Source: Zootoca vivipara
Lineage: Eukaryota
Length of the DNA stretch: 64,000 nucleotides
NCBI RefSeq assembly: GCF_963506605.1
Contig: NC_083289.1
Span: 10,974,001 to 11,038,000, forward strand
Reading direction: 5' to 3'
This document shows, in pieces, positions 6,813 through 54,057 of the stretch (position 1 is its first letter; every line of letters begins with the position of its first letter). Made by a program: the position numbers and the translations under genes. A model generated the notes under the pieces. That model saw only the letters and a list, made by a program, of their open reading frames with translations, was not told the origin of the DNA and searched no databases.

Positions 6813-7693
6813 TACAGTATGTACCAATTTCCAGAGGGGTAGCAGTTCTTGAACTTCTTTGTAACACCTCAAAACAACAACAACACCTATCTGACTGAGT
6901 TGCCTCAGCCACTCTGGGCGGCTTCTAACAGTCTCTCTCAGCTTTAGGTTCCTATATATATTGTTGGACTACAACTCCCATCATTCCTAGTCAGAATGGC
7001 CAGTGGTCAGGGATTACAGTACTGTATGTAAGTTGCAGTTTAATAATATTTCGGTACTCCACAATTAAGAAAGGCTGTCTTAAAGACTAAATATATAATC
7101 AGATGTGTCAGATTCTTCATTGTTACTCCTAATATACAGTGCCAGATGAAGCCATGCTGGTGTATCAACCCATAATTTTCTCATTAATACGGTAATGGTT
7201 TCAGCCAAATAACATTGAATTTGCATTAGGCTGCCAGGTCTATAGTTCTATGGACCAAATGAAGGGTAGTATTCAAATTTAATAAATAAATAAAACAAAA
7301 CAAAATAAAATAAAAATTCAGTCCCTCTTCCAGCCATCTGATAAAAAGACTTATTTTAACAATAGCCTTTGCATTTTTGTTAATTGATAACTATGGACAA
7401 AAAATACAATACTGGAGATCTGCCACCAATATGCATGCTGATTTTGTGTTTTATTTATGTGAAATATTTATCTAAGAGTTACCAAATACCATAGTGGTTC
7501 ATAAAAAACACAATAAATAACAATGTTTTCCCAAAAAAAGGAATCCAGTACTGTACTGCCCATGAGTCAACTAATGCTTCTGGGAAAGCTTACAGAAATA
7601 GGAGTTACAGGTAGGTGTTGGTCTGACGTAGTCAAAACAAAATTTAAAAAATCCTTCCAGTAGCACCTTAGAGACCAACTAAGTTTGTCATAG

Positions 7694-7731
7694 GTATGAG
7701 CTTTCGTGTGCATGCACACTTCTTCAGATAC
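7694..7731 (-). ncRNA. Minimal type I hammerhead ribozyme motif
   Basis: gtat-CTGAAGA-a-gtgtg-catg-cacac-GAAA-gc-TC-atac: core boxes, stem I gtat/atac, stem II gtgtg/cacac and palindromic stem III AGCT. Confidence 0.7.
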
Positions 7732-7752
7732 ACTGGTGACTTCTGTTTCAGT

Positions 7753-7790
7753 GTATCTGAAGAAGTGTGCATGCATACGAAAGCTCATAC
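7753..7790 (+). ncRNA. Minimal type I hammerhead ribozyme motif (mirror copy)
   Basis: gtat-CTGAAGA-a-gtgtg-catg-catac-GAAA-gc-TC-atac; one G.U wobble in stem II. Confidence 0.65.
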
Positions 7791-10700
7791 CTATGACAAA
7801 CTTAGTTGGTCTCTAAGGTGCTACTGGAAGAAATAGGAGTTATTAGTATCAGGTGAAAAGTGTACCATATTGGAGCCCGTCTAACTTCAATGGGCAGTGT
7901 GCTCTACAAGGCAGGAGCCACTGGTGATTGTGATGCACTGCGCTAGATGCTGTAGTTTTAGAGACATGCAGAGGATCATTTGAAGGAAGTTTATAGACCA
8001 CTGGTAGTCCACAGACCAGAGTTTGGGAACTCGTGAGCTAGTATCTAGGGAAATGGCCTGTAGTTCATCCAAGACAAGCATAATGAAAATGAAAGAGAAC
8101 ATTACCGAGGGTGAGAAAATGAATAGATATACAATAAAAGGCACAGAAATATGCAAGAGTACAGTGGCTCAGAAAAGACCTTGCCAAAAATATATTGATT
8201 TAAGAAATATATTGAAGGAGATGTGGTTAGGTTGTGCATAGGAAGCAATACAGTATGAAAATGGCAATTTACTGGAAAGCAGAATGACAAATTTAGCATT
8301 ATGTTTTACAGTATTTCAAAATCCTTTTAACAACAAATGAGAAATTTTGCATACTGTCAGTAAATTGGAATTTGTCAATGCTCTGCTATTCCTTTGTTTG
8401 CTCCAACTAGTAATTTAAAGGAAACACTGCTAGATGGTCTAATTGACCCTATCCTTGTCTCTCTCTGTTGGTGTCTATAATTAGGCAAAACTCTGCACAA
8501 CACGCCACCCAAAACAGGCCCTTTCCAGAGCCACACCCAATCCACTACTGCCAGTTTCAGATTTTCTTCCTTCTCAATACTGTACAGGAATAAAGTTTTA
8601 TGTGATTCAACAAAGAGAAAATTCAAAGCATTTTATTTCTTCAAATACTGCCACAAATACAGCATTAATGACAAAAACAGAATTTTAAAAGCTACATTTC
8701 ATACTTTCATCTGTTCCAACACTCCTACAGAAGCCATCTACAACTACAATAAGAACACTTGCAAAACTTGCAATACTTTTGTGTAAATTAACATCTTTAT
8801 TAAAATAAAGATAGCTTTTCAAAAGGAATAAAAAAAATAATATTACATAACAGCAGAAACGACATATAGGCAGTTTTAATCTTAGTTATAGTGTTTTTGT
8901 GCAGAAACTAAATTGCATTTAAGTCAGAAGTTGACAACTGGCAGCATGTGAGTCTGATTCAGCCCCAAATCAACTTGATCTGTGGTCTAGTAGCACCACT
9001 TTTTAATCAGATGAATTGAAAAAAATGCTGATTGATTTAAGGAAGAGACTATGGAGTAGAGGGAATGTGTGTCAAATCTGAAGTAAAATATAACATTCAA
9101 AGTTACCATGACAGTTTGGGCCCACTTTTCTAATCTAAGAAAATTAAATGCAGGTGACAGTGTTCGGCATTTGAGGGGTGGGGGAACAAATCAACACACA
9201 CGTATGATGAGACACGGAAACTGGAATATGAGAAGGATCTCAGGATTCTAAGTTGTGGTGTTGTGATAGGTGAATTGCATACTAGGAATTGTACGGTAGT
9301 TTTAAAAAAGGTATGATGGAAATGAAAGAGTGATGTAGAAATGAAAGCACTGCAGTACACAAGCCATATTGGGATACTGCATTGTAGCCAATTTTAGTCA
9401 TACCTAGAGCAGACCCACTGGAAGTAATGAGCATAACTAACGTAGCAGAACCTTTCATTTCAATGGTTGTTTGAGTAAAACCAATGTGATACAACCAACT
9501 GTTTCCTCTCTCACACCATCAACACCTCAGAGTTTCTCACTCCAAAATATGCCCATATTGGATATGCCCATATCCAAACAGCAAAACAACTTTGTCAAGC
9601 AATCTGTTGTGCTACAGTGAAGTTAGACCTCCAAAATAAAAATTCATCTTTACTACCAATATCATATTGAATAATTATGACAATGAATATTTCTTTAAAG
9701 GTCAGAATAAACTTCTAGATCACTGCCAGTTCACATAGCTTGGCCTTAGTCCTAAAGCATTACTGTACAAACAGCCTCATCTCATCCAACTAGATCTTGT
9801 ATTTAGCATTCAAATTAGCACTGCACTTACATGATGAATTTACTGATATTACCAGAAATTCAATTTCAGCAGGAGTTAGGGAAACTGGAGGATCTTTACT
9901 TGGGAATGTAAACCAGTGACATAATTCAGTTGACCCACCATGATCTGTTTTGGAACTAAGTTTATGCCTAGCAGAGCTTTCTCTTTTTAAAAATATTGCT
10001 ACAACAAATGATTGCAGAAGAGGATAATTGGTACCATACTAATATGTAAAAAAATAATACATGTGAAGCATAAATTAACTTAAATACAAATTAGCTGGTG
10101 TCAATAACAAAATGAATATTGCAGTTCAAATTATTCTGCATATTCTAGTAGCAGTTTTCCAGCAGTAATGGGGCTGCATTCTTCCATGATTATGTCATTC
10201 ACTACTCCACACACAAAGTTCTATGGCATGCATCCAATGAATACAAACCACTGTGATACTGAAAGAAACAGTCTAAAACCCACCACATTTTGAATCATAG
10301 TGTTTGGGGCTGACAGACATCTTTGAAGTCAGACCCCAGCCCTTAAACAAGACCAGTACGGTATATTGAAACCATAGCTGATAGTTATCTCAGAAACTGT
10401 TAACAAACTGTGCAGTCTGGCAAAAGCAGCTCTATAACCTCCTTTGGTAATTAATTCTTCTTCTAAATTAAATCTGTCCAGACAAGTTTCTTCCCTATAT
10501 TTGACCTAATACTTAACCAGTTGAGATCAGTGAAGATTATCACCTCCATAAAATTTTCCTCCTATGAGTATGCATTGTAAATGATTCCTCGTGGAGAAAG
10601 ATTATACTGGCTGAAATTGGTTCTCCAAAGAAAGTCACACACACAAGAGGACAGGCAGGAAGCTAATATCCTGCTTGTGCATACTTCCTGAAAAATCCAT

Positions 10701-17277: not shown

Positions 17278-19333
17278 TTTTGGATTGCAGTCCCATTCTT
17301 CCATATACGGTACGAACACAAGCCAAGGAAGCATTTATCCATCTCATCTCATCTTCCACTATTAACAGATAATCTCTGCAGCAGGTGGGACAGGACTTGG
17401 CTAGTAGGCATGCTGGGCTGGCATCACTAAAGACTTTTTAGTACACAGAGGAAAGGGGAAACAGCATGCAAACTGCTTCCAAAATATAATTGTGGGAAGT
17501 GTATGTAGCCCCCTCCCTAAGACTCGAGGAAGAGTCTCAGCCATTGCCTCTATTCAGGAAAGATTGTCCAAGTGCTGGGATGGCCAGCTGGCAGACAGAC
17601 TACAATCCTCTCTAAACAAGAGTTTTGAAAGGAAACATATCTGAAATTTTTTTGAATACTAATTACAGAAACTTTAAAAATATACTTGAAATATACTCTT
17701 AAGGACCTGAATTAACTTTTAATCTACCTTAAAATAAATATTTTGCTATTTAATAGATATTGCAGTTGCTTCAGTGATTTCAGAAACAGAACCTCAACAT
17801 GCTGTAAAATCACTTGACACTGTAAACTGGAAGAAAGGAATTCAGTCTCTTTCCAAGCTACCTTTTATTGCCATGTCAAAATCTTAACTTTATATATATA
17901 TCACATACCATATTTATTTAAATACTATATTTAGTGAAAGGAGGAGTCCGATACACACTGTCCAATAAGTAAAATAATGTTCTAGACTAGATTATTTTAC
18001 AAGCAAGAGGGAAGCTTCAGCTGACAAAGTGAATTGGCCCTAGTGACAAAACAAGCAAGTTTTGCAGCTTGGGAGCTCAGCAGCCAAGCAAAGAGGCCAG
18101 GGCAGACTACTCTTACCCTTCTATTTTAACCAAACAAATCCCAGGCTCCCAAGTAAACAACAACAAGTATGCTGGAATAAAGTCAGTAAAGGTGTAAGGG
18201 CTATCCAGAGTACTGCACAGCACATCACCTAACAAACATATCTGCCTACCAGACAGAAGTCAGGAGTGTGCCCAATGCAATGAGCTTCTAGTTCTCAGGA
18301 AATATGTTTGTTCTCTAGAGGCCAAGGTGGCTGACCTGGAAAAGCTCAGAGAGGTTGGTGGATGAAGCCTTCAATGATATGATAGTAGCATCTCACACCT
18401 GGGGTCACAGCTCTTCCACTGTCATGGAAAACCAGAGTCTCAGCTTGGGCATCACTCTGAGAAAAAGGAAAATGATCCCTTAGAAGAGACCCATTCCTTG
18501 GGGCTGAGCAATGTCCTCTCACTAAGGATACTAACTGGGGTAGGGGTGTTAGAAGCAGTGTTCAAAATTCACAAGACACCAGGCACATTTTGCACCTGGT
18601 AAGCTAAGGTTACAGTCGCCAAAATGGAATGTCTAGCTGCCATTCTGGGGTAAGATGGCACAAAAATCATTTAATATGGCTTTCTGGTTCATGAAATTTG
18701 TTCTGATTGTGCAGATAAAATATCACAGATGGAATTCTAAAGGATGTGTTGTTAGAGTGTGAAAACAGGCAAGATCCAAGGATCCCCAGGCATACACCTC
18801 CAGATGGTGAGTACATCAGGTGCCATCCTGGTGCCCAAGCATTTTCACTTGGTTGCAAGTGGCCGATAGTCAGGTGCAAAATTCACATGGTGAATTCACA
18901 CACACACACACAGGGATAAGAGTGAAAACATTTATGATTATCAAAAGCAGGGAAGCGGTAGAACTAGGCATTGAAAGTGCAGGGCACATGATAGCAATTC
19001 AAAAGGGCCAAGGGGCCATATAGCAAAATTTACACACCAAACACATTTGAAGGCACACAGTCATCAATAAGGGTTTCTATGCTAATGCTGAAGCTTCTAT
19101 GTCAAGAGGGTTAAGCTGCCATGCTTGGTCTTAAACCAGAGTATAGATATAGTGGCTGGAATGGAAAATGCCAGTGGGACATTATAATTTCTGAACACAA
19201 AATATATGAAGAACAGAGGAAATAATACTGGTGGTGGCAGTACTGCATACATCAAAGAAGACAGAGGAATCCAACAAACTAGAAATCGGAAAATGAGCAG
19301 AATCTTCCACAGAAATCACTATGGGCAGTAGTA

Positions 19334-19426
19334 AAATAAAAAAATTCCTTCAGTAGCACCTTAAAGACCAACTAAGTTTTTATTTTGGTATGAGCTTTCG
19401 TGTGCATGCACACTTCTTCAGATACC
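19334..19426 (-). mobile_element. 93-bp Penelope-like mini-insert with 12-bp TSD, nested in a CR1 fragment
   Basis: Same family as 7608-7828. TSD tgggcagtagta at 19322-19333 and 19427-19438. Confidence 0.8.
19387..19426 (-). ncRNA. Minimal type I hammerhead ribozyme motif
   Basis: ggtat-CTGAAGA-a-gtgtg-catg-cacac-GAAA-gc-TC-atacc with a 5-bp stem I. Predicted cleavage between 19392 and 19391. Confidence 0.72.
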
Positions 19427-20928
19427 TGGGCAGTAGTATCAGCCTCTGACAGTAATTCACTATTGGAGACATACTGTCACACTCCAAAATCCCCAGGGTG
19501 ACCTTGATATAGATAAAGAAATCAGGGAGACATCCAAAGGATGCAGTAATGAGTGACTTCTATTACTCTCACAAATATTGGGTAAATATGTGTTTCACTC
19601 AGAGATAGGTACCCTAAAAGAATACAGCATGCCTAGAAGATTATAAAACTGACCAGAGGGACCATGACTCCCAAGACCTGCCATCAAATTCAACACATAT
19701 AAATTAACAATTTTGAAGGAAGTCTTAAACAGCAAAATTTGACTTCAAAAGGAGAAATTCCAAAAAATGAGGGAAGTGATAAGAAAATTGAAAGAGAAAG
19801 GCAGAAAAGACAAATATCTTCAGAATGCTTGGAGTTTTTTCAAAACCACAATAATAGATGCTCAGTTTGAATATATAGGAAAGGTACCCCCAGGCTTAAA
19901 AAGGATGCAAGAAGCTTCAGAAAATGGATATCTCGTACAAAGGAGAACAAAAAGGAACTCAAATATTTGGCAAAATAAATGCCAGCAGGCAATGAGGGAA
20001 GTAAAAACAATGGTTTTTGAGGAGTACATGGATAAATGTTCAAAAAAATTATGATCAAGAAAATTATTATTGGAAAGTAACATGCTAGAAGCAAAAAAAA
20101 CTGACTAGAGAAACAGTTGGACCTCTGGGCAACAAGGGAGTTAAAGGTGTGCTAAAGGGAAAAAGGGGGGGACTGCCGAGAAGCAGAATTAGCAGCATTT
20201 GTCCACAGTGGTAGGTATAAAGCAGACTCCTGTGCCTTAACTAACTTCCTGAGGAAAGGAGTGTAAGAACTGAGACAGAAAATATTGATAAGAAATGAAA
20301 TTATAGGCCTTACTGATAAATTAAAAGCCAACAAACTGATAGGTTTAGAGAGTTCTTTACTCAAATATGAAATTGCTGATCTTCTAACAAAAATATGTAA
20401 CTTGTCACTAACATCACCCTCTGTATCTGAGGACTGGAAAGCAGCCAATGTAGTACTGGTTTTTAAAAAGGGATCCCAGAAGGAATCCAGGAAATGACCA
20501 GCTGGTTTGTTCCAACATCTTTTGGGAAAACTGGTGGAAAACCAGTTAAGGACTGGAATGACGTACTTGCACCAGCTCCTCATCCTGCAACCTAGTCGTT
20601 CACTGGACTGCCCTGTGTTTGACCTTGGAATGTTCCTGGACCTTGCCTTTTGCATTGCCCCAAGGATTTGACTTCAGACCACGACCAGAAGAAGCCCACC
20701 AATAATTAACATCTCATCCTCCACCCCTGCTGGCCAACGCCCCTGCTTTACGCCTTCCATGGGCAGCAGCCTGGATGCCAAGACCAAGGTGCAGCTCATA
20801 CAGGATGCCAGGATTCTGCTGAGGCACCCTCACTGTCTTTACTGTGGCCCATCCTCCTGCCTGGTAGACTCAGCTAGCCACCCTACTCACTCCCCTCAGC
20901 AGCTGCAGCAGCTGCCTCCTCTGCCACT

Positions 20929-21700: not shown

Positions 21701-21756
21701 CACCAACTTATTACCAACTTATGGTAAGACATAACACAGTCATACTTGGAATAGAC

Positions 21757-22134
21757 CAGGCCTCCCCAAACTTACTACGCTTTGGGCCGGTGCCTGAAGT
21801 GCTGATCGCGCGGAGGGTGGGGGAGCGCGTGGCCCAAAGGACCGATTTATCCAGCCCGCGGCGACCCCCCGCCTTCCGCTCTTAGCGGTGCGGCGCAGCT
21901 GCCCACTTCCGGCACTGGAAATACCTTGCGTGCATGTGCAAGCGTCATTTCCGGTGCACTTCCAGGTCGGGGGGAGGCCCGTGTGCATGCGCACAAGCTA
22001 TTTCCGGTGCTCCTGTGACCTGGAAGTGCTCCAGAAATAGTATGTGCGCACATGTATGGGCACGCGCTCCCCACCCTCCGCGCGATCAGCACTTCAGGCA
22101 CCGGCCCAAAGCGCAGTAAGTTTGGGGAGGCCTG
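21757..22134. mobile_element. Non-autonomous hAT (Charlie-like) element within a larger palindrome (21731-22160)
   Basis: Termini caggcctccccaaact / agtttggggaggcctg; CpG-rich interior related to 2866-3212. Confidence 0.8.
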
Positions 22135-24929
22135 GTCTATTCCAAGTATGACTGTGTTATTATACTACTGTAAAAAGTTCACATTTAAAACAATCTACCT
22201 TTTCTGAATCCTGCCACTTGCCATGTAATTCTATAACCTCACTGTCCATAAATGGAATATAGGTTGTCTTTATTTAAAAATTAACAAAGATTTTGTCTGA
22301 GTTTAGAAGTTTTAGTATCAATTTATAGCCAACATTTTCAATAGTATCTATTAAAGCAGAGCTACTGAAAGGACTGGGGAAGTTATACAGGCAGGTATTT
22401 ATTTGATTTGTAGGACTTTCAATCGCCTGTGTTGAAAATATAATGGATGAAAATAAGTATGTTTTTTATTTTGCATCATGATAACTAAATCACATAAAAT
22501 TTATGTAAAACATACATTGCTAGATACTAGCAGTACATAATTATATGTGGCTCTCTTTAATATTAAATGCAGCCGGTACATACCTGTTATGTAAGTCTTG
22601 GGTAATTTTCCTAATCAACAAAACTGAGACTAGGATCTAAAGCATAGTGCATCTAATTCTAGATACTCAAAGGGGCTTTCAAGTTGTGTTTCCAGCCTTC
22701 TACCTCATTGCCAATGTCACATAAAAGCCTGGCTAAATTGAGAGAACTGTAGAAAGCAGTTTGTGATACCACATGGTGGCCAGCTGTTTGGATAAAGAAA
22801 AGTATAAAAATCCTACTTGATGTGTGCAAGCCATTCAGCATGACTAGTCGTTTCTGCCTGACCATTTCTAGGTTTTGTACAAATTTTCAACATCTGAGGG
22901 CAAATAGCAAAATAATTTATTTGGTCTTGTTTCCATAGCATATTACCATGGAAGGCTTTTACTTCTTTCTGGATTATCTATGGACTTGCATGCTTAATAA
23001 TGATAAACATAATCCACCCAAAGTTAAGAACTTTTCAATTCTGTTGGTATTGATGGAAGAAAGTCAAATGTTTATTTAGTAATTCCACAAATTAGAATGG
23101 ATTTAGAAGAGCTTAACTTTGAAAAGGCTGTGGTCCCTTCCTTTTAAAAAAATAAAAATAAATCCACACCATCCTGCAAAGTGATCCTGAGCTACATTTT
23201 CACCTTTGCAGGACTCACATGCAAGTTCCTTAGAGTAATACATTCATTCTCCTACACTGCTGTATAACCATTTTTCCTCTTCTAAAAGGGAGCTTTGTTA
23301 ATTTCATTTCTGCAGAAAACTAATTAAGGGTTTTTTTAAGGAGGAAAGGGTCAGGAGACAAATACACCACGTACAAGAGCAGTGGAGTGCACAGACTGAA
23401 ATGTGTGTGTTTGTGTATTAAAAGGGAAGCTTGCTGAAATGGTTGGGGTGGGCTGGGATAGGGCGGCTTTTAGCCAATTTTCTGTTGATGCTGATGCCAA
23501 ACACCCAGTCACTAAAGCCTGCTTTTAAGAAGGCTTTGAAAAAAGCACAACATGACACAAGAAAGAGTGGGGATTGCATGGCTTGTCATTACTGAAAGAG
23601 TAAAACAAACACCAGCTAACCCATGATATAAACCTTTTCACACTTGATGCTTCATTTTAAATGATTTTTACATTTAAGCCCAAAAGCTCTATATACAATG
23701 CTATCCACACTGCAGAGTCATGTTGAAAATACTCTTGAGGAAGACATAGCCACAACAAATTCTGTGCATCCTTTATAGCTTACAGTGATGTTTCAGTCCA
23801 ACACTGCTTAGCAGTGATGTTACAGAATGTACTGATTTGTCTCCATACTGCAGTGTTCTAACTGCACAGCAAACCCACGGACTAAACTAAGAGTCATAGC
23901 TACTTCCAGAAATCCAGCTAAGTATAAGAAAAGGTTGCTTTGTTATCGAGTACACACAGCTGCAAAGAATAGAAGAAAAAACTGAAATACAAAAGTTTTT
24001 ACTGACAAAGTCTTAAGGAAGTGGAAAATTCTGAAATTTAAGAGATGCAGGCAAAAGAACCTCTGTATCATGTAGGAGAGGGGGGAAAGTGTTTTTGGTT
24101 TTTTTCTTCTATCAGCCAGCCTGGCCAGGAATCTTTTCATTTGGATCACAATGGAGCAGCTGTAGCCCAGATTTCAGCCCCAGACACATGCAATGCAACA
24201 GCAACCATCATTTTTTCCCCAACAGTGCCAGAAATACAAGACACTGTAGCAGGGTTCCAAAAATGGATGATCTCATACTACATCCACACCGCAGGGATGG
24301 GGGTGGGTAGCGAAGTAGAAGGCTCCATGACCTTGCAAGCAGTTTCCAAAGGGGGGGGGAGGTAATATCTAGAAGGGGGACTGGGGGAGGAATCTTTTAA
24401 ATAAATTTCGTGAGAAACACGCAGAGGAACGCGGGAGCCCCTGACGGTGGACAGAACCAGCAAAGCCGGAAGGCAGAGGGAAGGCTACCAATGCCCTGGA
24501 ATGAATGAACATCCCGCAGCTCCCTCCCACTCCGTTTAGGACGCAAGGGACTAGAAACCTGCCCAGCCACCCGCTCCGTCAGGATTAGAATCAGGATTAG
24601 GATTAGGACTAGGTCCCCCCCCCCCCGCTTCTCCCTTCCTCTCAACCATTTCCTCTTTTCCCGCCCGTCAGGTTACGAAGGAAGCAGGCGGCATCGGGGA
24701 GGCAGAGGCGGCAGCCTAGCACAGCCGCAGGTGCCGAGGCGGCGACCGGAGACCGTGAGGGGAAAGGAAGCCCGGCTCAGAAGGGCTCCGTCCGCGGTGC
24801 CGCGTCGCGCCCCCCCCCCCGGCCGCTTCATAACCGGCTGCACTGAGAGTAGCAGAAGGAAGGAAGAGCCGCCAACCCGGCGGGATTGGGTGCCCGGGGA
24901 CTCCGAAGAATGAGTGGAAAGCGCCTCAC

Positions 24930-25330
24930 CTGTGGGTCGGGCGGGGCCGCCGCATCCCTCCGCTTATCGTGCCCCCTCACGGGCTGGGAGAGGCGGGGAG
25001 GGGAAGACGACGACGACCGCCAGCACCGCCGCGCCGCAGTCTCCGCCTCCTCCTGCTGCTGCCGCCTCGCGTCCGCGCTCCTCAGTCTCCCTTCCCTCGC
25101 CCCCACCCTCCGCTGCTCTGTGAGGAAGACGCCGCTTCGCCTCGCTCCTCTTCCCTCCCTCCCGCGCGCACACACAGACACACACACACGAAGGCACGCG
25201 CAAAGCCCGCCTCTCCAATCACGCCTCGTCGTCCCCCATCAATCCCCGCCCTTCGCTCTCTCTCTCGCGCTCTCTCTCGGGCCCCCTCCTCCGCCCGCCC
25301 CTCCCTCCTCCGCCGAGCTGTGAGAAGAAC
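24930..25330 (-). other. MYO9A: Putative non-coding first exon of MYO9A (upper boundary approximate)
   Basis: Minus-strand donor CAG|GTGAGG at 24930/24929 inside the CpG island. Identity rests only on recalled head-to-head MYO9A-SENP8 synteny; no MYO9A coding sequence is in the window. Confidence 0.6.
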
Positions 25331-25559
25331 ACGCCCAAGTCGCGCGCACGAGCGATCGAGCGAGGCTCGTGCTCCCTCCCACAGCCGCGCCCCAACCCAA
25401 CCCGCACACTAAGCCCCGCCCACGCACCTAAAAGGCGAGGGAGGGGGCGCACGGGTGACAACAGCCGGAGTAGCTGCGCCTCCCACTCCCCCCTCACAAC
25501 CACAGTCTGGGGCTCATTGGTCCCGTATGTTAATGAGCTCCCCTTTCCTTTTCCCACTA

Positions 25560-25696
25560 GTGCGGAAAGGGAGCAGTGGGGAGGAAGGGGAAGTTGCTTT
25601 CCTGTTTGACAGCCCTTGGGTTGCTAAGCTCGCCGTGCTTTACGGCCGCCCGCAGCCACCGCGAGAGCGTCGTGAGGAGAATGAGGCCGGCGCCAG
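25560..25696 (+). other. SENP8: Putative SENP8 exon 1 (5' leader); 5' boundary approximate
   Basis: Consensus donor CAG|GTAAGG at 25696/25697 at the right end of the CpG island. It pairs with the acceptor at 33456/33457. The two-exon structure matches recalled mammalian SENP8. Confidence 0.65.
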
Positions 25697-26661
25697 GTAA
25701 GGTCTTCTTCTTGCGTGAAGTGTGTCAGTGCGGAGCAACGGCGGCGCCGCCGCGTGTGGAATTATCCTGCCTCTGGGGTAGAATATTATGGAGGAGGGCG
25801 ATAGAGATAGAGCTGATCGATGATAAGCGTGCTACGGCGGTGGGTCGCGTGGGTCCCTTCCCCCCGCCGGCCTCTGGGCAGCGCTTCCCTCCGCCCCTCG
25901 GTGTCAGGGACCGTGGTCGGTGGTCGCAGCCTCCGCTCAGCCGAGTGGGGGGTGGCCTTTCGCTGCCAGAACTTGATCCCCTGGCCTCCAGGGTGCTGAT
26001 TTTCAAAATGAAATAAAGTTTGACTTAATCATTCCAGAAACCTGCATGAATAGATTCATGTCCGCCAATAACGAAACTGTATTTTTAATGTTCATTACGT
26101 AGATATCAGTGCATAAGTACGGTAGTCGCAGCCAGTCTGCATTTCAATTGGATTTTGTGTTGGTGATGTTACCTAGTTGTTGTTGCTGCTGCTGCTATAC
26201 TTTAGCTTTGCTGCAGGCCATGTACCTTAGGAATCGCTGTGCCAGATCCAATCATAGGCCGCTTGACTCAACCTCCAGAGCGGTTTACAAAAGATAAAGC
26301 AGTAAAATCAAGAAAACTTCATAACCCCACTTTAGAGCATACAAAAGTTAAAATGCTGAAACAGATTTAAAATTATCTCAACTTTCAAAGCATCTTGCTA
26401 GGCTTGTCTAAACAGGAACATTTATTGCATGTGCAGAAAAGCATAGCCCTCTCCTGCTTGCATTCCCAAACAAGGGAGCTTCTGTATAGCATTAGTAGCT
26501 CTTGACAGACTAATTCCCTTCATTAATTTGTTTAACTACCTCTAGTGGCAGTGATTTGTGTAAGTTTGATCATGTCCTTCCGTATTTGCATTTTTTTTTC
26601 TATAGGAAAAGGCCCCAAACATCGTGCTTGTTCCTAATAGGGGAGGTGCTACAGCCCCTAT

Positions 26662-27477: not shown

Positions 27478-27614
27478 CAGGCATCCCCAAACTGTGACCC
27501 TCTAGATGTTTTGGCCTACAACTCCCATGATCCCTAGCTAACAGGACCAGTGGTCGGGGAAGATGGGAATTGTAGTCCAAAACATCTGGAGGGCCGACGT
27601 TTGGGGATGCCTTG
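27478..27614. mobile_element. ~136-bp palindromic hAT MITE
   Basis: TIR caggcatccccaaact; 8-bp TSD acctatag. Confidence 0.9.
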
Positions 27615-32900: not shown

Positions 32901-33498
32901 CCTGTCCCTTTTATTTTGGTTGTAGCTGAACTAATTGGTTCTCCTGTTTACCAGTTACAAGTATCCACAAAAATGATGGCTGGGGAAAGAATCTCTGGTC
33001 TTTTAATAAGAAGGATGCCTAGCAGCACATATCCAGTCCCACATAGGCAGAAGTTTAGAGAAGGCAACTAACAGCAGAGTCTTCTGCTGTTTGTTCCTTC
33101 TCTGTACTCCAGTACAATACCCTCAAGCTCTCCAGCAAGCTCCCAGAATTTGAGAGAGGGACAGGATCTTCCCTCACCTATGCTCAGGTTTGAGTATGAA
33201 AAGGATTCTTCTCCCACTGTTTCTTACCTTTTCCCTACCTCAGGGAGACTAAATGCTGTTTCTTCCTCTTCTGCATGTGCCAGAAAAATTTGGGGGGGAG
33301 GGAGTTTGGTGGCAATCCTAATCACATAGGGAGGCCAATAAGACCCTCAGCAGGTTAACTGGCACAATTCCATGACTGTGTTGGTCATCTTCGGCAGTGA
33401 GAAAAGCCCAACCTATTTTAATAGTAATCTGTTCTTTTCACCTTTGATTATTTTAGGCATTGGTATTTCTCTGGCTGCCGTGAGTCTGCCTGGATAGA

Positions 33499-34134
33499 AT
33501 GGACCCTGTTGTCCTAAGTTACATGGACAGTTTGCTGAGACAATCAGATGTCTTGTTGCTGGATCCTCCCTGCTGGCTCAACGACCACATCATTGGGTTT
33601 GCCTTTGAGTACTTTGCCAGCGACCAGTTCCAAGACTTCTCTGATCAAGTGTGCTTCGTTGGCCCCGAGGTGGCTCAGTTCATCAAGTGCACGAGCAGCC
33701 AAGAGGAGCTGGCCCTATTTCTTGAGCCTTTGAACCTCCTCCACAAGAAAATAGTGTTCCTGGCCATCAACGACAACTCCAGCCAGGCTGCTGGCGGCAC
33801 ACACTGGAGCCTACTAGTTTACTTCCAAGACAAAAACCGCTTTGCTCACTATGATTCCCACACCAGGAGCAACTCTGCCCATGCCAGACGGGTAGCAGGG
33901 AATTTGGAGGTCTTTCTCGGCAAGAAAGGCAAAGTTGCCTTTGTAGAGGAGAAGGCCCCTGCCCAGCAGAATAGCTATGACTGTGGGATGTACGTAATCT
34001 GTAACACAGAAGCTCTGTGTCAGGAATTTTTCCGGGGACAGCAGCAGCCAGTGCTTCAGCTCCTTACTCCCTCCTACATAACAGGCAAGAGAGAAGAATG
34101 GAAGGAACTCATTGCTAAGCTGTCCCAGAAGTGA
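33499..34134 (+). CDS. SENP8: Sentrin/NEDD8-specific protease 8 (DEN1/NEDP1), 211 aa, single coding exon
   Basis: The ORF MDPVVLSYMDSLLRQSDVLLLDPPCWLNDHIIGFAFEYF... closely matches the recalled vertebrate SENP8. C48 protease catalytic motifs GGTHWSLL (His), HYDS (Asp) and QQNSYDCG (Gln/Cys) are present. Strong Kozak context (agaATGg). Splice acceptor ttttag at 33451-33456 lies 42 nt upstream of the ATG. Confidence 0.98.
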   Translation: MDPVVLSYMDSLLRQSDVLLLDPPCWLNDHIIGFAFEYFASDQFQDFSDQVCFVGPEVAQFIKCTSSQEELALFLEPLNLLHKKIVFLAINDNSSQAAGGTHWSLLVYFQDKNRFAHYDSHTRSNSAHARRVAGNLEVFLGKKGKVAFVEEKAPAQQNSYDCGMYVICNTEALCQEFFRGQQQPVLQLLTPSYITGKREEWKELIAKLSQK

Positions 34135-41680: not shown

Positions 41681-41816
41681 CAGGCATAGGCAACCTTGGC
41701 TCTCCAGATGTTTTGGAACTACAACTCCCATGATCCCTGACCACTGGCCCTGTTAGCTAGGGATTATGGGAGTTGTAGTTCCAGAACATCTGGAGAGCCA
41801 AGGTTGCCTATGCCTG
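41681..41816. mobile_element. ~136-bp palindromic hAT MITE
   Basis: TIR caggcataggcaacctt; TSD ccctacag/ccctgcag. Confidence 0.88.
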
Positions 41817-44270: not shown

Positions 44271-44406
44271 CAGGCACCCCCAAACTTCGGCCCTCCAGAT
44301 GTTTTGGACTACAATTCCCATCTTCCCTGACCACTGGTCCTGCTAGCTAGGGATCATGGGAGTTGTAGGCCAAAACATCTGGAGGGCCGCAGTTTGGGGG
44401 TGCCTG
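44271..44406. mobile_element. ~136-bp palindromic hAT MITE
   Basis: TIR caggcacccccaaact; TSD gcctagag/tcctagag. Confidence 0.9.
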
Positions 44407-49542: not shown

Positions 49543-49678
49543 CAGGCATCCCCAAACTTCAGCCCTCCAGATGTTTTGGACTACAATTCCCATCATCCCT
49601 GACCACTGGTCCTGTTAGCTAGGGATCATGGGAGTTGTGGGTCAAAACATCTGGAGGGCCGCAGTTTGGGGGTGCCTG
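49543..49678. mobile_element. ~136-bp palindromic hAT MITE
   Basis: TIR caggcatccccaaact; TSD atctaaac/atctaaat. Confidence 0.9.
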
Positions 49679-51000: not shown

Positions 51001-51372
51001 CTGGAATAATAATAAAAAGGCATCAGGCACTCGAATATTAAAAGTATATATAACGCAAACACACACACACATATACAGGGTGAGATCCAATATAGTGTGA
51101 GTGGACATCTGCTAACACAGTGCTGGGGAAATTTTTAGCCCTCCAGGTTGTTGGACTACAGCTCCATCAGCCCCAGCAAGCATGGCCTATGGCCTGGGAT
51201 GATATGAGTTGTAGTTCAGCAACATCTGATGCAGGGACAGGGCAAAAACTCACCATATCTGCCCTAGCCCAACAGGGCTATTCTCTCCAACCTTTCTGCC
51301 TTCTGCGCCCCTGCAACATTTGCTTTGGAAGGTTAGGAGACACGAGTTCTGGGGAAATATTTTTGTTGAAGA

Positions 51373-53367: not shown

Positions 53368-53518
53368 GAATCATAAAATCATAGAGTTGTAGAGTTGGAA
53401 GGGACACTGAGGGTCATCTAGTCCAACCCTCTGCAACGCAGGAACCTTTTTGCCCAAAGCGGGGTTCGAACTCACGACCCTGAGATTAAGAGTCTCATGC
53501 TCTACTGACTGAGCTATC
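53368..53518 (-). mobile_element. tRNA-Lys(CTT)-derived SINE with CR1-like tail
   Basis: Head gatagctcagtcagtagagcatgagactcttaatctcagggtcgtgagttcgaacccc; tail ttccaactctacaactctatgatt. Confidence 0.85.
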
Positions 53519-54057
53519 TGAAAGAAGGTGCCCTTCAGTACTTTGAGGCAATGCAGTGAGCAAAGCATAGAGGCCCAGCTTTAATAGTTATCATTTATGC
53601 CAATAAACCTGGTTAAGAGAAAGCAGCAACTGGCAGGCTCACCTGTGCAAAACAAGTATGCTGCTAATTGGGTTGCAGCCAATGAAAATTCTACTCAAAG
53701 GAGACCCACTGAAATCAATAGCTCTATGTTAATTATGCCTGTTTATTTCAATGATTCTATGCTGAGTAATACTAATGCTGGATGCAATACAACTCAGTAT
53801 ATTTAGCTTAGCACTGCATTGGATACAACTCATAACATATATATACAGCATACCCAGGCAGTATGGGTCATAACCCTAAGCTGGTCCTACTCAAGAGTAG
53901 ACCCATTGAAACTAATGAATCTAAGACAGGCTTGTTCACTAACTTCAGTGGGTCTATTCTGAATAGGATTAGCATTGAATACCATCCTAAATATTCTTAC
54001 TATATCCAGATAGTATGTCTTGATAGTATATATCGTGGTATGGTATGGTTTGGACCT

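Follow-up and report, generated by a model that had tools for sequence, protein, structure and literature searches.

A 93-bp hammerhead-bearing insert in the lizard Zootoca vivipara: a likely short copy of a Penelope-like element, with a genome-wide peak of copy starts at the first base of the ribozyme

A stretch of 64,000 nt of the Zootoca vivipara genome (contig NC_083289.1, positions 10,974,001 to 11,038,000 of the forward strand, hereafter the window) contains a TSD-flanked insert of 93 bp that is little more than a hammerhead ribozyme. An earlier note, made from the letters alone, had tentatively placed it in a tiny non-autonomous, retrozyme-like family, and had proposed that it could dimerise with an identical core 11.7 kb away and cut the intron where both lie. 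The locus raises the question of what kind of mobile sequence starts where a ribozyme starts, and whether the ribozyme takes any part in making the ends of such copies or in cutting the host transcript.

The perfect 12-bp TSD (TGGGCAGTAGTA) is present at both sides of the insert, as previously noted. On the minus strand its first four bases (TACT) coincide with the element's own continuation, thus leaving the 3' boundary ambiguous by 4 nt (Table 1). A minimal, dimer-type hammerhead was confirmed on the same strand, with stems, core and palindrome as earlier described: the conserved core, a helix I of 4–5 bp, an extra base after A9 and a palindromic stem III, by which minimal PLE hammerheads are recognised, are all found. 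The ggtat start proposed for stem I stands for the native GTAT and not for the first G (19426), which does not belong to the element, long copies carrying a T at that position; native stem I has 4 bp, and a fifth pair is created at the junction by this G. Minimal hammerheads of metazoan PLEs are characterised by a short helix I, an extra base before helix II and a palindromic 15.2–16.2, occur in reptiles and are mostly single copies ascribed to truncated PLEs (PMC4209133). The motif described here is no different from these type I hammerheads (Cervera and De la Pena 2014, PMC4209133), apart from the fact that its first base is also the commonest start of the copies. The 35-nt core has 17,000 exact matches in the 1.44-Gb genome against 0 for the reversed control, thus indicating that it is not a chance occurrence. 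A scan of the window with Rfam gave no hammerhead match, but only miRNA-type hairpin matches on the inverted copy at 7.7 kb.

Table 1. Features of the insert, of the second insertion and of the putative host gene (positions in the window; strand given where reported).
Feature	Position	Strand	Remarks
TSD, left copy, 12 bp	19322..19333	.	19330-19333 also match the 3' continuation of the element (4-nt microhomology)
3' part of PLE terminal repeat, up to the tail-less 3' end	19334..19386	-	
Minimal type I hammerhead	19387..19425	-	
Hammerhead stem I (GUAU/AUAC)	19425-19422 / 19391-19388	-	
Hammerhead core CUGAAGA	19421-19415	-	
Hammerhead extra A	19414	-	
Hammerhead stem II (GUGUG/CACAC)	19413-19400	-	
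Hammerhead GAAA	19399-19396	-	
Hammerhead palindrome AGCU	19396-19393	-	
Hammerhead C17	19392	-	predicted cut between 19392 and 19391
Single G, in neither target nor element	19426..19426	-	putative copy of the 5' cap
TSD, right copy	19427..19438	.	
Second PLE insertion, another subfamily	7594..7842	-	14-bp TSD 7594-7607 / 7829-7842
Second PLE insertion, tailed direct arm with core	7694-7731 (core)	-	
Second PLE insertion, inverted arm	7753-7830	-	pairs with the direct arm
RA and myosin-head exon	~14 kb left of the window	-	located within the adjoining 100 kb
CpG island	~24250-26000		
Peptidase_C48 CDS, single long exon	33484-34131	+	

The Penelope origin already suggested for the insert was borne out, its sequence being identical over 91/91 nt to the 3' repeat of a copy (L211) that has an ORF with RT and GIY-YIG domains. 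This ORF codes for 901 aa, with homology to RVT_1 (E 4.5e-12) and, at the C-terminus, to GIY-YIG (E 5.9e-05). The element's ORF carries a CX4CxxC linker before the GIY-YIG domain and cysteines within the GIY-YIG core, a mark of the Neptune/Nematis type, which is defined, in the accessible part of Craig et al. (bioRxiv 10.1101/2021.04.23.441226), by a CX2-5CxxC linker in this position; judged from the linker motif read in the ORF, the element would be an EN+ PLE of this type. A 32-nt anchor at the 3' end gave 19,159 matches in the 1.44-Gb genome and 0 control matches (all genome copy counts given here are exact pattern matches), and the population carries pLTR, tail, inverted and tandem arrangements and TSD. 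In the same accessible passages, the EN+ PLEs of Craig et al. share with it the pLTR with hammerhead, the optional tail of 30–40 bp, the inverted 5' arms, the partial tandems, the variable TSD, and an RT followed by the linker and by a C-terminal GIY-YIG with internal cysteines. As far as these passages and PMC4209133 go, PLE copies with minimal hammerheads were already known in truncated, inverted and tailed form. The insert itself has neither the TATA-like box nor any ORF sequence, and is therefore probably a dead end; it is likely a very short, dead copy of this abundant PLE. As such the locus is ordinary, one among tens of thousands of PLE stumps.

The lengths of the copies were analysed in two ways. 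An unselected sample was formed by the first 100 matches of the 3' anchor, whatever their 5' end; these lie in 3.5 Mb of a single contig and are not all independent, since paired arms and a four-copy tandem are among them. Their 5' ends form a continuum, from 8 nt to over 1700 nt upstream, with 38/100 at positions 30–55 (1.46 ends per nt, versus ≤0.17 elsewhere) and only 2 exactly at the G of stem I. No end (0/100) was found within 2 nt of the ribozyme cut site, and 5' ends defined by that site were ruled out. The start peak was derived from genome-wide exact matches with a non-native base just 5' of each position, a count which includes later mutations. The resulting numbers are 653 at core C3, 1243 and 1569 at two and three bases 5' of it, and 4023, the peak, at the G of stem I; one base 5' of this G the count falls to 610 (A/T flank only), and three bases beyond it to 137 in one subfamily and 72, with G, in other subfamilies. 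Copies continuing past stem I (native TGTAT) amount to 10,478. About 26% of the copies that reach the stem I G stop there, compared with about 9%, 7% and 5% at the neighbouring positions. The first 100 places at the peak comprise 94 junctions, calls that depend on the motif filter, and 6 mutated long copies.

Copies that share exactly the 82 nt of the insert from the junction G onward number 873 in the genome, and with this count and the sharp peak at stem I the insert proves to be a recurrent unit, as had been supposed. The further claim, that of a defined unit of about 90 bp as opposed to random truncation, survives in part: there is one sharp class of starts at stem I, within a continuum of ends extending beyond 1700 nt. 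The direct copies with TSD starting at stem I fall into two length classes, 87–96 bp without the tail and 116–136 bp with it. At several stem I junctions (L007, L026, L148, L280 and L286) the fillers are often short stutters of the first 10–15 nt of the hammerhead, in either orientation, which suggests repeated re-priming at the RNA 5' end, and in one flank (L128) a filler resembling a degenerate telomeric repeat (TAGGGTTAGCGTTAGG) lies between the inverted arm and the hammerhead start. In the sampled 3.5 Mb (G000:C1:1-3.5 Mb) the 100 anchor matches correspond to about twice the mean genome density, and copies starting at stem I are rarer there (10, against 64 native copies) than genome-wide (4023 against 10,478). 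One locus of this contig (L090, G000:C1:2777400-2779800) consists of four head-to-tail repeats of 598 bp, each made of the ORF end, the pLTR with hammerhead, the tail and the ORF start; this tandem could form hammerhead dimers and looks like a nascent retrozyme.

A G was found just before the stem I start in 68/94 junctions and in 12/56 at two control positions (Fisher p 1.3e-9); as a further comparison, G makes up 26% of non-T flanking bases. Among 16 direct copies with TSD and a filler of 0–1 nt, 6 show G as the sole filler base, in 7 the TSD ends in G, and 3 have a C; the insert at 19322-19438 is a seventh lone-G case. Upstream, a TA[TC]AWAWR box has its first T at -31 in 31/44 long copies and at -32 in 6/44, where -31 is the usual spacing of the TATA box to a Pol II start. 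Two other origins of the peak were considered. The best match to the Inr consensus (TCA+1CT/GT) would place the start at an A 3 nt upstream, where the 137 and 72 copies mentioned above form no peak. A 5' splice site at the GT of stem I, joined to a T-rich/CAG stretch, was absent from the 15 joints listed of 64, and is disfavoured because no exon would fit within the TATA spacing.

Expression was evaluated on three raw RNA-seq runs of the same species, from one study, about 6% of each being mapped on one pLTR-ORF junction. Reads are deep over the hammerhead unit and mostly continue into unrelated sequence, which indicates that they derive from host-transcribed copies; host sequence precedes the stem I G in 254 and 171 reads in two runs. 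Neither at the stem I G nor at the cut site was a pile of read starts or ends seen in these data, in which host-transcribed reads dominate and depth at the ORF start is ≤12.

It is known that PLE transcription starts lie inside the pLTR (PMC2377424), and rotifer pLTRs have a TATA and Inr-like pair, according to the accessible part of PMC3846280. In full-length LINE-1 insertions a terminal extra 5' G was interpreted as a sign of the cap (PMC2831318, accessible part), and the terminal G is taken here likewise as a cap copy; unlike in LINE-1, the 'complete' product would be only about 90–135 nt long, with RT thought to start near the RNA 5' end. Frequent 5' truncation is described in the passages of Craig et al. 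cited above, but these passages mention neither a start peak at one base nor a terminal G nor the TATA spacing. No previous report of a start peak or of a cap G in PLE copies was found in openly accessible main texts, although Figure S2 of PMC11167929 (genomic copy coverage) may show the edge.

We consider it probable that the insert is a terminal-repeat copy of an endonuclease-bearing PLE, reverse-transcribed from an internal site near the 5' end of the RNA up to the cap. According to this proposal, the TATA-like box of the terminal repeat would direct transcription to begin at the opening G of stem I, so that base 19425, the start base common to the short copies, would be a transcription start. 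Reverse transcription may begin internally, at two sites flanking the 'tail', by analogy with the Anolis Poseidon element PAc, for which such initiation at two sites bounding the tail was described, with ribozyme cleavage not needed and the hammerhead cut site free of RNA ends (Frangieh et al. 2024, PMC11167929). Short copies would then be cDNAs, newly generated from several subfamilies, that extend from the internal initiation site up to the capped 5' end; copying of the cap G would add a terminal C to the cDNA, giving rise to the filler G or to the TSD ending in G. On this view thousands of copies would start at stem I with an extra G because RT runs from that initiation site as far as the cap. 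The population does have the two 3' ends bounding the tail and lacks copies ending at the cut site, as in PAc. The precedent, however, is a Poseidon element and ours is of Neptune/Nematis type, another PLE clade; moreover, the PAc ORF starts in stem II, whereas here the first ATG of the long frame lies after the tail, and the main text of PMC11167929 does not cover RNA 5' end mapping and run-off copies.

A single-base start peak, an untemplated G and an upstream promoter spacing, as a run-off to the cap would leave them, were all observed. Against it, at many G junctions there are fillers or inverted arms copied from element sequence close by, the best Inr-like match would set the start 3 nt upstream of the stem I G, and ends in the unselected sample are spread over positions 30–55 rather than set at the stem I G; structure was resolved in all but 21 of the 94 junctions. 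With a slight preference over the contrary, we regard about a quarter of the ribozyme-bearing PLE insertions as complete 'strong-stop' cDNAs of a capped RNA starting at the first base of stem I, and, in that case, the ribozyme would be the 5' leader of the RNA and not the maker of its 5' end.

The main rival keeps the same PLE origin and invokes a structural stop, in which RT, on a longer RNA, dissociates at the folded hammerhead's 5' edge; the end of the cDNA then folds back on the complement of stem I and gains one templated C. The G is exactly predicted by stem I complementarity; ends are enriched over the whole hammerhead, at positions 30–55 as reported above, and fold-back does occur, being continued for at least 3 bases in 7/68 G junctions and being full at L246. 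Even so, although 30/68 G junctions match at least one more base, 38/68 show no further match, and the predicted next base is present in only 2/7 of the lone-G cases (the 6 direct copies and the insert). RT normally stalls when entering a structure, not when leaving one, and the TATA-like box at -31 is left unexplained; altogether we rate this origin of the peak as rather unlikely. Ordinary random 5' truncation, with a start at stem I by coincidence, agrees with the continuity of 5' ends to more than 1700 nt and with the frequent truncation that the accessible part of bioRxiv 10.1101/2021.04.23.441226 describes as standard for PLEs; the crowding of ends at positions 30–55, the genome-wide single-base peak and the G bias disfavour it, and make it very improbable.

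The family envisaged in the earlier note, i.e., a self-propagating non-autonomous unit of about 90 bp (a mini-retrozyme or SINE-like) with its own transcription and mobilised by the PLE protein, would account for the 873 exact copies of the 82-nt unit, G included. Non-LTR retrozymes are indeed proposed to derive from pLTRs in the accessible part of bioRxiv 10.64898/2026.07.22.740005, and the internal promoter of Drosophila Penelope would be kept in such a copy (PMC2377424). Like metazoan non-LTR retrozymes (PMC7229834; bioRxiv 10.64898/2026.07.22.740005, accessible parts), the insert is small, non-coding, related to a pLTR and endowed with a type I hammerhead; these sources describe, however, tandem repeats of 150–450 bp cut into circular RNAs, with canonical hammerheads in PMC7229834, whereas here a lone TSD-flanked 93-mer carries a minimal motif that begins 34 nt ahead of the cut site. 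Head-to-tail arrangement, as a sense core within ≤600 nt, was found in 1/94 copies starting at stem I and in 0/30 exact-unit copies, and none of the 100 sampled ends lies within 2 nt of the cut site, as those of a unit bounded by cut sites would. Nor did the subfamily comparison in the sample of 94 reveal a lineage with diagnostic changes of its own, as a SINE-like family would have: copies starting at stem I belong to at least four subfamilies, which are also represented by long copies (29, 23, 20 and 11 of 94), and the insert has no private change with respect to the full-length element. Of the exact-unit copies examined (30), 16 represent arms within inverted insertions, 10 are direct with TSD and 4 are unclear, 13 of the 30 having the tail that the insert lacks; furthermore, a 93-bp unit does not include the ORF sequence needed by the anole protein for template use (PMC11167929). 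With the start continuum added to these data, a separate family is quite improbable, and that part of the earlier interpretation is not supported.

The proposal of a cut in the host intron is independent of the origin of the copies. The orientation on which it rests holds: the two cores probably lie in sense orientation within a 5' intron of the host gene, as suggested by the minus-strand myosin exon and the CpG island, and the site fits the 5' intron of a class IX myosin gene, read from its first coding exon and this island. The gene is presumably MYO9A; the Pfam search on 112 window ORFs of at least 90 aa found no myosin exon within the window, and MYO9A and MYO9B could not be told apart by a PDB search. 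The Peptidase_C48 CDS, which we take to be SENP8-like, SENP8 being a neighbour of MYO9A, shares the CpG island region at 24–26 kb with the myosin gene.

The partner core is identical to that of the 93-bp copy, as had been noted; its setting is a different one, since it is one arm of an inverted repeat (7654-7830, about 177–178 bp) that belongs to an insertion with its own 14-bp TSD. This core is transcribed right after its own reverse complement, forming a predicted 177-nt hairpin of -152 kcal/mol in which the pairing probability of stems I and II is 0.0. Dimerisation of the two sense cores in the nascent myosin pre-mRNA, with cutting of the intron, could still be argued from their being both intact, identical and on the host strand, and from stem I of the 93-bp copy forming with probability 0.4–0.8 in its local context. 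Against it are the locking of the 7.7-kb core in its hairpin, and an interaction limited to two 4-bp AGCU duplexes (-2.5 kcal/mol each), free cofolding pairing stem II between the molecules instead. In vitro, no cleavage was seen with single minimal motifs and weak cleavage with adjacent dimers (PMC4209133), and the anole motif needed the PLE protein (PMC11167929). Depth of RNA-seq over all transcribed copies shows no drop across the cut site, which argues weakly in the same direction. About 0.9 sense exact cores per 150 kb are expected by chance at genome density, and a further inverted core pair lies further down the same myosin gene. In the openly accessible literature no report of intronic cleavage of host genes by such motifs was found. 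Cutting in cis at this locus is thus extremely improbable. Under the proposed run-off to the cap the hammerhead would be a passenger, and meaningful cutting of the host pre-mRNA is unlikely.

Other repeats were observed in the window. A family of 84-bp hairpins (27504-27587, 41707-41790, 44297-44380, 49569-49652 and 51145-51225), matching Rfam mir-5408 below the gathering score, is probably a transposon-derived repeat. A tRNA-like match of 46 bits (53451-53523, minus strand) could be a tRNA gene or a SINE head, while an inverted repeat pair of 104 bp with 97% identity (21731-22160) and an AT-rich hairpin (1924-2054) are possibly DNA-transposon remnants.

The transcription and copying of PLEs, and the role of their hammerheads, are still open questions in the field, for which the population pattern matters more than this locus. 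The start peak argues against ribozyme cleavage setting the ends of inserted copies and, with its cap-like G at the first base of the ribozyme, makes an exact prediction for CAGE and for in vitro TPRT. If the strong-stop reading is true, the transcription start of a vertebrate PLE is recorded to the base about 3,800 times in the genome, and longer copies would need templates that start further upstream, such as tandems, read-through transcripts or circles. The 'monomeric retrozymes' and mini-families called from short hammerhead repeats may likewise be by-products of autonomous PLEs.
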